Source: Lytechinus pictus (Eukaryota). Taken from it: 60,000 nucleotides of DNA. The notes under the pieces are model-generated. The model did no database searches and was not told the origin of the DNA. It saw only the letters and a list, made by a program, of their open reading frames with translations. This document shows positions 7,230 through 28,900 of the stretch, in pieces. Numbering within the stretch: the first letter of the stretch is position 1; each line of letters opens with the position of its first letter. The DNA is taken from positions 17,362,001 through 17,422,000 of the forward strand of contig NC_087245.1 of NCBI RefSeq assembly GCF_037042905.1, read 5' to 3'. The position numbers and the translations under genes were made by a program.

Positions 7230-7570
7230 GGCGTCTCTGATGAGTTATGTGAATGAAACAGGAGCGTATTGAGGATACTTGTTCTCGTGCGTGTGCTTGC
7301 GTCCACGAATCTAAAAGCATACGCACGTCTGGTATTAGCATAACAACGTCTACGTCACAAGCCAAGATGATATGTCGACTCGCTATTAATAGAGTGTTGC
7401 ACACGGCACACTATTCTGGTGAGCTGAGGGCTGCCTAGTACATGTAGTATCACCAACTCTCATCAACTACGCACGCAGATGCTTCATGACGTCATCGGAT
7501 CAATAAGCACGCAGGAGAAGCACACTCGGAGAGCACACTCGCCACACAAAAACATAACAGGGGCACTGGC
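7230..7570. promoter_or_regulatory. Distal enhancer-like island (MEF2 plus CRE)
   Basis: Perfect MEF2 palindrome CTATTAATAG 7383-7392, TACGTCA 7351, TGACGTCA 7487-7494. Confidence 0.45.
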
Positions 7571-8534
7571 AGGGGTCTTCTGGTTCTTCTTTTATTTTTT
7601 ATCAATTTTGAATGCAATAAGAAGAATAAAACTGTAACAACTTGCAATGATATAGTGTTTTTAAATAAAGATATTTCACCAGGTCTCTCGAAAGAAATAT
7701 TTGATAAACAGTTTTATCTGCGATATATCAGGTGACCTATAGAATACTAAAAAATGTAAGTTATGAAGCAAAAACTCTTTATAGAAAAGAAAATTATCCT
7801 ACATATTACCTACGAATATCAGTTTAGAAAGAGGCGAGTACCGTATTTCTTTACGTCAGAGAAAGTACATCTTTGCCTTGACAAGCTGATATTTTTCAAG
7901 ATACTAACCAAAGTAAATATACGCAAACTATAAAAGTTAAGGAACATAAAGTCTTCGATGCAAGTTATTCAATGATCTAATACTCTCTCTCTCTCTCTGG
8001 TGCTGAAACCATGTCTCAGCTTTTAGTATATTTAATTCAGAGAAGCACCTTTTTTTGTTGCTGTAATAGCTGATTAATTTATTTTATTCGCCATGAGCGA
8101 TTGTAGGGCGTTGATCGTAAAGTACTATTTATTGCATTCAGACGAAAAATGAAAAAAAAAAGTATACTCACATAAGTTCTAAATCGATCGTTTGCAGCTT
8201 CGATAATGATTGACCATTAGGTTTAAGATAAATGACACTGTAAAAGTCAATAAATTATCCATCAAACAAAGCCCAGTTTGTGTGTTCATGGCAGTAGGAG
8301 AAAAAATGTTACAAAGAGAAAAAGTATTTGTAAGAGAAAAAGTATTTATCTTAATGAGCACCAGTTAAAACCTCAAACTTTGAAATACAGACATATCTAA
8401 TTTATAAGGCGTTGGGACAGTTATTATCAACAGACTAAGAACTCGTCCATTGGCATTATAACTATAATAGCAATACTGGCTCAACATCCATTCAAAATCA
8501 AGGTCACCACGGTAGTAACCTTAATGGAAAAGTA

Positions 8535-8788
8535 CACTCTAAAAAATATTTGGTAAAAATGTTCCATGAGGGTAATTAAGTGTCCAACCAACAGTGGGGA
8601 TTTTGGGGGGCATTTTTATTTAATTGTGTGATGAAAATTTTGCCCGTTCTAAGGTAATTGCTGCTTATTTTTTTTACCTTACTGGATAATATGTTTCCTG
8701 CATTGGGTAATATACTGCCCCAAAGTGGTTGGAAACATAATTGCCCTCGTGGTGGTGAAAATTTTACCCAATATTTCCTTTTACAGTG
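8535..8788. mobile_element. TA-flanked MITE (CACT...AGTG ends), apparently nested in an older Harbinger-like remnant (~8405-8822)
   Basis: TA|CACTCTAAAAAATATTTGGTAAAAAT ... ATTTTACCCAATATTTCCTTTTACAGTG|TA. Confidence 0.7.
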
Positions 8789-9179
8789 TATAGCTCAATC
8801 GTCTTTATGAAAAGGGCCCCTGATGTAATACTGAATATACAATAAGTGAAACAAATTTGAGTGTACAGAATCAGGAAATAACATCCAAAATTCCCAAACG
8901 ACACATATCTTTTATGGATATTTTAAATAAAAAATGGGAAATATATACATCAGAGCACATTGATTCAAGTGAAGAGATACGAGGTTAAGTAGTTTCATGA
9001 ACGAATTTGTTTTGATTTAATCAGTAAACCAATTAGTCACAAACGTAACACTGACTCACTAAAGCCGAAACATGATGGAATCAAGGGAAAAGTAACGACT
9101 TCTTATCGTGCTTATGAAGGATTAAGGTATTTCTCTCAAGGAAAGCTCGTCTTTGTATGATTTCATAATTTAAGAATTT

Positions 9180-25659: not shown

Positions 25660-25882
25660 TACAACACAATACAGGCCTTTGGGAGCAGACGATATCACAG
25701 TGAATGCCGGGTGCTTCTCTTGGGTTTGCTGAGATTTGGTGACGTCACATCAGATTTAACCAATTAAAAAACGGAAGCCGTGCTTAAAGCGGGAATCTTC
25801 TGTGTTGCATCCAAGTACGGCAGCCCTTTAAACGGCGTCGCAAAGAGACTTCAAGGGGCGCTACCAATACCCGAGATTGACC
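25660..25882 (+). promoter_or_regulatory. Proximal promoter-like region or 5' UTR of the 25883 exon
   Basis: TGACGTCA 25740-25747, CCAAT ~25760; possible acceptor ccaag| at 25815/25816. Confidence 0.45.
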
Positions 25883-25979
25883 ATGATGCTGGTAGGCGCA
25901 CCCACTTCCTTTGGGACCGGGTACCCTCATGTCAATGGCTACCCAACCTATCCTTTTGATGACTTCGAAGCCTATTCAG
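25883..25979 (+). CDS. NR4A: NR4A proximal first coding exon ([33 protein letters not shown])
   Basis: accATGATG start; 97 nt ending TCAG|gtgctt (phase 1), in frame with the acceptor at 26856. Confidence 0.75.
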
Positions 25980-28900
25980 GTGCTTACCTCAATATTAATC
26001 ATCCTAAGTGTTCAACACCCATCGTCTTGATCATTGTCTGTAAATACAATGTTGTCGAGACACTGATCCGTTAATTTCATTTAGTTTTCTTTTCATGAAC
26101 AGTGCAACTAGAGTGCTCAAATTCTTGTTTGTCTCTTAACTTATGTGAAATAACAATTCACCCCCTTCTCTCTCTCTCTCATCCTCTCTCTTTCTCTCTC
26201 TCTTCTATCAACTTTTTTTTATTTTGGCGTTTTTCTCAAATGAAAATACCTCCTCAGTCGATATTACCGTTAAATTGACAATGAAAATTATCGCAAAAAA
26301 ACCGCAAAAATAATTAACCGAATCGTCAGACAATTTTCACACCTTTTCATGTATATGCATAGTTCTGTTATGGAATGCTGTGATCAACCATTTTTTCATG
26401 TTGCCTTAATATCATCGTGTCATCACTGCATGAAATACATGTACAAAAGAAAAACACTAGAATGCATGAAAGTTATCATGGTATTCATTGCAAGTGCCTG
26501 TTTTCATTTGTTCGTTTACATGTAATTCATTTATTAGTATCAATTGTTTGCTATATTCAACTCTTTTTATTTAATTTTAAAGCAGTTAAATTTTGTACTT
26601 AAAATTTGAAGCGAAAATAGGATAAGAAATCACTTATGACTCCTTAGAATAATAATATTTCATGATACTTATTTCTACGTGTAATCACTTGGCCTGGGCG
26701 ACATGTCAGAGAAAATGCCTTATCGATAACTCGAACATGTACATTTATCGAAGCTTTCAATGAATTCTTCGGAAATATTCAAAAATGTATCTCGAAAGTA
26801 ACATGGAAAACAAAACTTTATTTTAATCATTTATTCTTTCTTCTTTTTATTAAAGGCTACGTCGATCCGAACGCGGGGTCATCCCAGTATAATATACTGG
26901 AAACAAAACTGTTTCAGAATTTCACCAGTCCCAATCAACCAGAAGGTAGCCCAGTCAGCCCACCACTCAGTACAGACGGGACTCTCATCTCACAACAGCA
27001 GCAGCATCCTCATCCACATCATCATTCACCTCCAAATCAACAAGCAACCCAACCGCATCGACCAGTGCAACATCCACAGTCAGAGGCATCACCACCTCTT
27101 CAGCAACCTCAACCTCAATCCCAACAACAATCCCAGCATCGAGTGACACCTCATAATCACCAGCAACATACTCCTCATCAGTCCCCCCAGAGGCAATCTC
27201 CCGTTACCCCTATGCCCGCCAGTATGCCCTCTTACACCCCGAAGCAAGACGCATCCTCACCGCCTTGTATTGTTCAAACGCCAGAAACCTTTTCATCGAA
27301 CTATAGCAGTCCTCCGGTTTGCACTTCCACCAGTAGCAGATTGCCGAACTTTCAGGACTGTTTTGGTCCCCCAGGATTGAGGCCGAACTACGAAGAACAT
27401 TCGCCAGAGTTTCCCCCGTTCAGTTCAATGACGGAGTTTCTCCCAAGTGCAACCCAACCTGAAACTTACGACAGGGAGTATCCACTTCCTGCGATCCCTT
27501 CTATGTCTGAACACATAGCTTACCAACATGCATACAGCCCAACTTTAACAGGAGTCACTCCCCCAACAACATCACACAGCACGTATTCTCCAGTGGGTCA
27601 TCAAAACGATTATTATGACACAAGTTTTACGCATGACGTTTCGTCTATTCATGTTGATGCGAGCGTTCCTCCTCATTTTGTATGGGGTACTTCACAAGAG
27701 GGTCCCATACCGACATGTACGGAAACATCCATCTTGGAAAGCAAACCTCATCACTACCCAATGCCACCTAACCCACCGCTTGGTTCTCAACATAACATTA
27801 TGGTCGGGGCAAGGAGAACCAGTCCTATCATGTCACTATCACCAGAAGGACCCATGATAACACCGCCTAGGACGCCCTCTCAGGAAGGCATGTGTGCTGT
27901 GTGTGGTGACAGTGCAGCTTGCCAACATTATGGCGTCAGAACGTGCGAAGGATGCAAGGGTTTCTTTAAGGTAAGATACGCTGTACAGTTTACTAAAATT
28001 GAGTTAGAATCAAATTAATACATAAAATTAAACAATGAGAAAAAATAGAAGTATTCACGGTATCATTCATCTTGAAAAATACATGAAGCTAAAAAAGACC
28101 GAACTGTAGATGCCTGGGCAGGAATCTTCATAACCAGTTTCCCCAGGAAATTATGTGATATGAAAGAATTCCGTAAACAAAAGAAACGTATGGTAACGTC
28201 ACTCCTGTTCTCCTCACTTGGAAGCATACATTTTGAGCAACTTTGAGGAAATAACAAGTCTAGGTATTCCCTCTGGATCATCGTCCTGTAGATAAGGAAG
28301 ACTTTTTCAAGAGTCTGCATCATGGTATTGACGTCATAGAATGCCAGTAACAAAATTGAAAGGTTCCGGAGTTTTAACTTGTGCCTTCCCTGGCAAGTTG
28401 TCAAATTGGCAGTGACTGCTGCGTCTAAACCGACAGTTGTGCCGCCGGGAAGGGGGCGAGAAGGGTGAGAACAGGAAGCCGCAATCTTAGAGCTTGATGC
28501 GGATGACACAGCGTTTCCCTGACAACAAAGCTACAAACTCCACTACAAAAGCGAGTTACAAACTCCACCGCAATGTCTCGGTTAATCCCCGTAGATTCAG
28601 GTTGTCACAGTGAGTGATGTGACGAAAAAATAAAGATTTTGACTTACTTTCCAAAGGTCTTAAAGTTTCCTCCACTTCAGATTTAGAAATGATTGATAAG
28701 CCTTAAAGGACGATGTTTTTTCATACATTTATCGATGCAAATGAAAGGTGTAGAAAGGATAACGATTATATGTTTTTATTGCTTTACAGAGGACAGTACA
28801 AAAGAATGCTAAATACGTATGTCTGGCCAACAAAAACTGTACGGTGGACAAACGACGGAGGAATCGATGCCAATACTGTCGCTTCCAAAAGTGTTTAGCC

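Follow-up and report, generated by a model that had tools for sequence, protein, structure and literature searches.

How many different N-termini can a single nuclear receptor gene supply? The question is raised by a 60,000-nucleotide (nt) stretch of the genome of the sea urchin Lytechinus pictus (contig NC_087245.1, positions 17,362,001 to 17,422,000; hereafter the window), in which an NR4A receptor gene is preceded by several candidate first exons. Vertebrate NR4A receptors show ligand-independent activity, attributed for the most part to the N-terminal activation function 1 (AF-1) region. We find that region 7253-26856 is likely to be the 5' part of a single-copy sea urchin NR4A gene (Nur77/Nurr1/NOR1/HR38-type) with alternative coding first exons. 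The gene appears to have at least two, and probably three, exons of this kind, here called 1a, 1b and 1c (Table 1).

The gene body carries the marks of an NR4A receptor. Exon 2 of the window is 100% identical to the L. pictus RefSeq protein XP_063953471.1 (P0002), the next-best match being from Diadema antillarum at 72% identity, and a seven-exon model that begins with exon 1c reproduces the P0002 translation exactly. Precomputed domain matches on this protein (PF00105 and PF00104) identify a C4 zinc-finger DNA-binding domain (DBD) along with a nuclear-receptor ligand-binding domain (LBD). Most of the named proteins among the 120 matches listed are NR4A1/2/3, HR38 or similar, an assignment by source labels rather than by tree. 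When P0002 was compared with the 812-Mb assembly of its own species, AF-1 and LBD matches were found at the window locus alone, and the remaining matches covered only the DBD. NR4A is thus single-copy in this assembly, in line with the single NR4A gene of the original prediction.

The three candidate exons share a structure that suits one acceptor. Each begins with ATG, is free of stops, has a length of 3n+1 (phase 1) and ends in G before a GT donor. Exon 2 follows the acceptor ...TTATTAAAG/GCTACG, with AG at 26854-26855 and the first exon base at 26856, and the junction codon G/GC reads Gly with each of 1a, 1b and 1c. Three ATG-initiated open segments with phase-1 donors fitting this acceptor had been predicted, and every coordinate was confirmed, which places at least two first exons with their own ATG in phase with one common acceptor. 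Each alternative first exon would splice in phase 1 onto common exon 2 at 26856. The products would have AF-1, DBD and LBD in common and differ only in their first 33-47 residues, beginning MMLVG... from 1c, MASSMHVLL... from 1b and probably MYCQRSDNGY... from 1a.

The bare ATG-to-GT pattern is weak evidence and within chance, because region 7253-26856 contains 100 phase-1 segments with 30 or more codons, which end at 63 different donors. Ranked among these 63 with a rough, self-made donor matrix, the donors of 1b (14208), 1a (10220) and 1c (25979) come first, second and fourth. Third is 7418, the donor of a further segment with 55 codons that begins at 7253, the coordinate at which the original prediction starts, and a perfect cAMP response element (CRE) at 7487 lies 69 nt past it. 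This segment stands out by its open reading frame (ORF), donor and phase, and a Pfam search matched no family to the peptides of 1a, 1b or 7253-7417.

Exons 1b and 1c are matched by annotated N-termini in echinoids. The N-terminus of P0002 is an exact match to the 1c peptide joined to 26856, and 1c is the annotated, canonical L. pictus N-terminus (MMLVG...). Two kinds of N-terminus were found among the RefSeq records in the 90% cluster of P0002 and in the Diadema cluster. The 1c-type start, MMLVGAPT..., occurs in isoform X2 of S. purpuratus (P0123; two accessions, XP_003725145.1 and XP_786266.3, with the same protein) and in isoform X2 of D. antillarum (P0132; four accessions, XP_071488808.1 to 811.1, again with one protein). 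The 1b-type start, MASSMHVLLP...TRRSG, occurs in S. purpuratus X1 (XP_003725146.1, P0122) and X3 (P0124), in D. antillarum XP_071488807.1 (P0003) and in D. setosum XP_072180790.1 (P0131). Both types of peptide run into Y(V/I)(D/E)PNAG of exon 2 in these RefSeq models, those of the sister species being automatic gene models.

The 1b peptide of the window is identical at 36/40 positions to that of S. purpuratus, at 33/40 to that of D. antillarum and at 32/40 to that of D. setosum. The AF-1 portion of exon 2 provides a yardstick, with 319/345 identical positions in S. purpuratus and 259/338 in Diadema. Camarodont and diadematoid urchins, whose split is old, share the ATG, frame, length and junction of 1b. 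Conservation in relatives, as expected of the proposed exons, extends to both: the ATG, frame and Gly junction of 1b and 1c hold in the S. purpuratus and Diadema models. Judged by these matches, 1b is genuine as an alternative coding first exon and is the ortholog of the S. purpuratus X1 and Diadema N-termini; we infer its use in L. pictus itself. The two-N-terminus design of 1b and 1c is already known from the RefSeq models of sister species, and what is new is 1b in the L. pictus locus; a literature search found no publication on echinoderm NR4A N-terminal isoforms.

In gene products, joins to the common exon are seen for 1c in L. pictus RefSeq, for 1b in the models of other species only and for 1a in none; a run search listed no sequencing runs recorded as RNA and holding 7000-14400. 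The idea of interchangeable N-termini on one acceptor holds for 1b and 1c through the RefSeq models of other urchins, and for 1a has reached the level of conservation. In a Logan record of S. purpuratus type (P0128, 563 aa), a spliced NR4A ORF begins with a Met inside exon 2 (MPASMPSY...), which could stem from a non-coding leader spliced straight to exon 2 or just from a truncated contig.

Exon 1a is a candidate third first exon. Its peptide, MYCQRSDNGY...YYATG, has relatives with the same Met in three genomic-type ORFs that read through the 1a donor: P0134 (94 aa, from an ENA contig; 44/47 identical), P0135 (72 aa, Logan; 46/47) and P0138 (85 aa, ENA, a cluster mate of P0135; 46/47). Two of the three have an in-frame insertion of a single codon. 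Past the GG at the donor, the relatives diverge from the window, and the sole patch that aligns is frame-shifted (ESCFHYRLVSN vs KSCFHPALTSN, 7/11). Between P0135 and P0138, mismatches number 0/48 in the exon part and 5/24 in the read-through part (Fisher p = 0.003). The 1a ATG is the first in its own frame, with in-frame stops ~20-35 nt upstream as read from the sequence. Together, the conservation of frame, the break past the donor and the upstream stops indicate a coding exon that would end at 10220.

The 1a region is also single-copy in the 812-Mb assembly and is therefore no transposon fragment. On balance, we lean towards 1a as a third NR4A first exon, with a predicted splice to 26856. 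A search of a representative library with 1a gave three matches, two of which (P0136 and P0137, long repetitive proteins) were judged spurious, the third being P0135. Among Joint Genome Institute (JGI) metagenome contigs, the 1a alignment A1 gave 62 pattern matches and 0 relatives.

What could select among such exons? The most likely mechanism would be separate transcription starts, each under cAMP/CREB-type control. The perfect CRE, TGACGTCA, occurs 15 times in the window, against 0.70 expected from shuffles (0/100 shuffles reach 15) and 0.63 expected under a local Markov model. Among the 64 CG-centred palindromic 8-mers it ranks first, none of the others occurring more than 3 times, and this ~20-fold excess is the strongest purely statistical feature of the window. 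All but one of the 15 (14/15) lie between 79 and 30198, and the locus shows the enrichment in full CREs expected of a CREB-target immediate-early gene. Consensus sites for the serum response element (SRE; 1 vs 5.3 expected), AP-1 (9 vs 9.1) and MEF2 (1 vs 1.7) are not enriched. The CRE excess fits the CREB dependence of vertebrate NR4A2 described in PMC12471074, without telling which CREs are promoter CREs. Three of the four CREs in introns 2 and 4 fall within 270 nt, and the four may form an intragenic CRE enhancer.

The GC content of the blocks that surround the candidate starts (8901-10400, 13201-14500, 20501-21300 and 25501-26100) is 0.41-0.46, compared with 0.36 in the window as a whole. 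In the same order, these blocks have CpG observed/expected ratios of 0.92, 1.03, 1.05 and 0.71; the window averages 0.79, and values of 1.0 or more are found in many other blocks. Of the CpG-richer islands with a perfect CRE in the original prediction, the CREs, the GC content and the CpG count stand, whereas CpG ratios of 0.71-1.05 are unremarkable. TATA-like strings carry little weight, because they are common here (47 in 7001-26900).

The fourth block was said to hold a strong donor and a TATA-like string without an in-frame ATG, and it does so, together with two perfect CREs. Its phase-1 frame is open for 11 codons only and lacks an ATG; island 4 therefore cannot supply an N-terminus. It would most likely serve as a non-coding leader exon or as a CRE enhancer.

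Table 1. Candidate first exons, gene model and perfect CREs, in positions of the window; a slash marks a splice boundary.
Feature	Position	Strand	Remarks
Exon 1a, coding part	10082..10220	+	139 nt, 46 codons + 1 base; donor CAG/GTGGGC
Exon 1b, coding part	14091..14208	+	118 nt, 39 codons + 1 base; donor CGG/GTGAGG
Exon 1c, coding part	25883..25979	+	97 nt, 32 codons + 1 base; donor CAG/GTGCTT
Exon 2, common	26856..27970	+	acceptor TTATTAAAG/G; codes most of AF-1 and first zinc finger
Exons 3-7	28790..31878	+	rest of DBD, hinge, LBD; stop within 31622-31878
NR4A model, exons 1c-7	25883-25979, 26856-27970, 28790-28919, 29108-29271, 30108-30310, 30900-31078, 31622-31878	+	
Candidate non-coding leader exon (island 4)	21059..21391	+	TATA-like TTTATAC at 21059; donor ACTCAG/GTAAGA at 21391; putative start
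Further ATG-to-GT phase-1 segment	7253..7418	+	55 codons; third-best donor of 63
Perfect CRE TGACGTCA	9515..9522	.	567 nt upstream of 1a ATG
Perfect CRE	13538..13545	.	553 nt upstream of 1b ATG
Perfect CRE	25740..25747	.	143 nt upstream of 1c ATG; CCAAT after CRE
Perfect CRE pair	20889..20929	.	at 20889 and 20922, in island 4
Intronic perfect CREs	28329..29850	.	28329 in intron 2; 29579, 29734 and 29843 in intron 4
Perfect CREs in coding exon 5	30122-30129, 30191-30198		both xxT GAC GTC Axx = Asp-Val-Ile
Outlying perfect CREs	79, 5114, 7487, 45381		79, 5114 and 7487 far upstream; 45381 downstream of gene

The sheer number of phase-1 donors, 63 in the region, is what could be expected if 1a, 1b and 1c were ORFs that arose by chance in AT-rich DNA, whether intronic or intergenic. 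Yet this is refuted for 1b and 1c by their matches to annotated N-termini elsewhere, and it sits badly with the conservation of 1a at 44-46/47 residues; we regard it as highly improbable. A narrower objection concerns 1a. Only 1b and 1c might be coding first exons, while 1a would be a short ORF in its own right, would belong to an unannotated neighbouring transcript as its first exon or would be a conserved regulatory block that happens to lack stops. This would account for the presence of 1a in no named protein and in no joined protein, for its weak Kozak context (T at -3, T at +4) with ATGs upstream, and for relatives that are only moderately diverged. It fits less well with changes in 1a that are conservative or in-frame next to an intron that frameshifts, with a phase and final G that suit the common acceptor, with a donor that is second-best of 63 and with a single-copy region. 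Moreover, no ORF of at least 70 residues in 10221-14000 resembles a coding exon, a homology search of these ORFs not having been made. We consider a gene with two coding first exons less likely than one with three.

The CRE islands could also be, for the most part, enhancers of one inducible immediate-early gene, with island 4 and perhaps others acting at most as leader exons that feed the 1c ATG, and with most transcripts encoding one protein. CREs are also found in introns 2 and 4 and far upstream (79, 5114 and 7487), and island 4 is without a usable ATG. The 1c-type protein, on two S. purpuratus and four D. antillarum accessions, fits transcripts with different untranslated parts, and the X2 proteins of asteroids and crinoids have the MMLVG exon in an internal position, behind another coding exon. 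Upstream exons feeding 1c are plausible, because several accessions share one 1c-type protein and the MMLVG exon has this internal position in starfish and feather stars. What this explanation does not cover is 1b, which has its own ATG and is the modelled first coding exon in three other species; a start site would therefore lie upstream of 14091, separate from that of 1c. Enhancers serving a single protein are thus a minority possibility that deserves attention, and alternative coding first exons remain our preferred reading.

Several points weigh against that preference. The two L. pictus records that the searches returned, P0002 and an older one, P0125, begin with 1c and are without 1b. 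Exon 1a stands at the N-terminus of 0/8 named echinoid records (P0002, P0003, P0122-P0125, P0131 and P0132), and a search for longer proteins containing it found none that join 1a to exon 2, with one match (P0134) from two candidates. In L. pictus, the support for 1a and 1b is at the level of sequence rather than of transcripts. The relatives of 1a are not distant, as their intron is still partly alignable, and the argument from constraint therefore rests on a few dozen codons. The conservation anticipated for 1a is seen in the ATG and frame of all three ORFs, whereas the splice donor GT falls outside a protein-level comparison, as protein sequence cannot show conservation of its T. A transcription start close to the TATA-like string at 9950 would place two short upstream ATGs, at 10036 and 10066, ahead of that of 1a. 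Finally, CREs mark enhancers as well as promoters, and the two in exon 5, which spell the codons GAC GTC, may owe nothing to regulation.

Other echinoderms suggest an order of events for two of the exons. NR4A isoform X2 of asteroids (P0111 and P0115) and crinoids (P0005 and P0013) likewise contains an MMLVG or MLVG motif, which there is internal, after another 27-39 coded residues. Because starfish and feather-star proteins also contain this motif, 1c would be the older N-terminus. When the asteroid and crinoid N-terminal extensions were compared with 1b, 2/12 shuffle tests gave p < 0.01 (p = 0.002-0.005) and 10 were not significant. The significant pair is the Patiria extension against L. 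pictus and against S. purpuratus 1b. A tblastn comparison of the extensions with 1b gave E = 2.4. As a weaker lead, 1b may be homologous to a starfish upstream coding exon, which would mean a shift from N-terminal extension to N-terminal replacement in echinoderms. A common origin of the three first exons is unsupported by Smith-Waterman scores against 5000 shuffles (1a/1c p = 0.56-0.71, 1a/1b p = 0.07-0.12, 1b/1c p = 0.37).

The principle is not new, because alternative A/B-domain isoforms are a standard nuclear-receptor design. N-terminal (A/B-domain) isoforms arise via alternative promoters in insect EcR-A/B1/B2 and E75A/B/C and in vertebrate ROR-alpha 1-4 and RAR-beta. The likeness lies in first exons with their own ATG that would be spliced to a common body, altering only the AF-1 end. 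For those receptors, promoters and distinct functions have been experimentally shown, whereas those of sea urchin NR4A are putative. The RefSeq NR4A isoforms of S. purpuratus, where the gene is labelled NR4A2, and of D. antillarum represent the same gene, with the same 1b and 1c N-termini and the same exon 2 start, and differ in that none of those models contains the 1a candidate of the window.

Vertebrate NR4A1/2/3, which are CREB-driven immediate-early genes, share with the window the receptor subfamily and a CRE-rich locus, although vertebrates have three NR4A genes and the window has one. According to PMC12471074, vertebrate NR4A2 has CREs in its promoter and obtains its isoforms through splicing of exons 3, 5 and 7; as described there, these variants are spliced internally or at the 3' end and do not stem from alternative coding first exons. 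Insect egr/stripe has two promoters, of which the B promoter is activity-induced and contains two CREs and an SRE, as reported in PMC6140108. On that account, egr/stripe resembles the proposed arrangement of sea urchin NR4A as an immediate-early transcription factor gene with alternative promoters, one of them with CREs, but it belongs to another gene family, and in the sea urchin every candidate island has CREs. Isoforms X1-X4 are named, among the matches listed, for many NR4A/HR38 genes of invertebrates and also for some NR4A3 genes of vertebrates. Because the latter also list isoforms, isoform multiplicity is not peculiar to single-copy lineages.

New here are the presence of 1b in L. pictus beyond the returned models, the candidate 1a and the measured CRE density. 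For annotation, this means that the returned L. pictus records are without the 1b isoform of sister species, and that no returned echinoid model has 1a. L. pictus is under development as a genetic model, and complete NR4A isoform models matter for knock-outs and reporters in this species. If true, promoter choice that swaps the first 33-47 residues would offer a single-copy immediate-early receptor an easy route to diversity. A fuller scheme would add 1a and, through three or four promoters with CREs, assign to each signalling or tissue context an AF-1 tip of its own, with paralog-like diversity as the outcome; we put this forward tentatively and hold it to be rather doubtful. The size of the CRE excess suggests that the vertebrate link from CREB to NR4A is old among deuterostomes.

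The window also contains features beyond the NR4A gene. Downstream of it, on the forward strand, lies a non-long terminal repeat (non-LTR) retrotransposon remnant (40944-44065; Exo_endo_phos PF03372, E 7e-07; reverse transcriptase PF00078, E 2e-31). On the same strand, a full-length metazoan signal recognition particle (SRP, 7SL) RNA gene occupies 46993-47290 and aligns to model positions 1-299 of 299 in Rfam RF00017 with 279.7 bits. The reverse strand has an exon-like ORF (59141-59476) with matches to two small-GTPase families, Ras and Roc (PF00071, E 2e-14); it probably belongs to the neighbouring gene. Two microsatellites lie closer to the exons discussed here, (TA)n followed by (TG)n at 22375-22441 in an intron and (TC)n at 26167-26215 upstream of exon 2.

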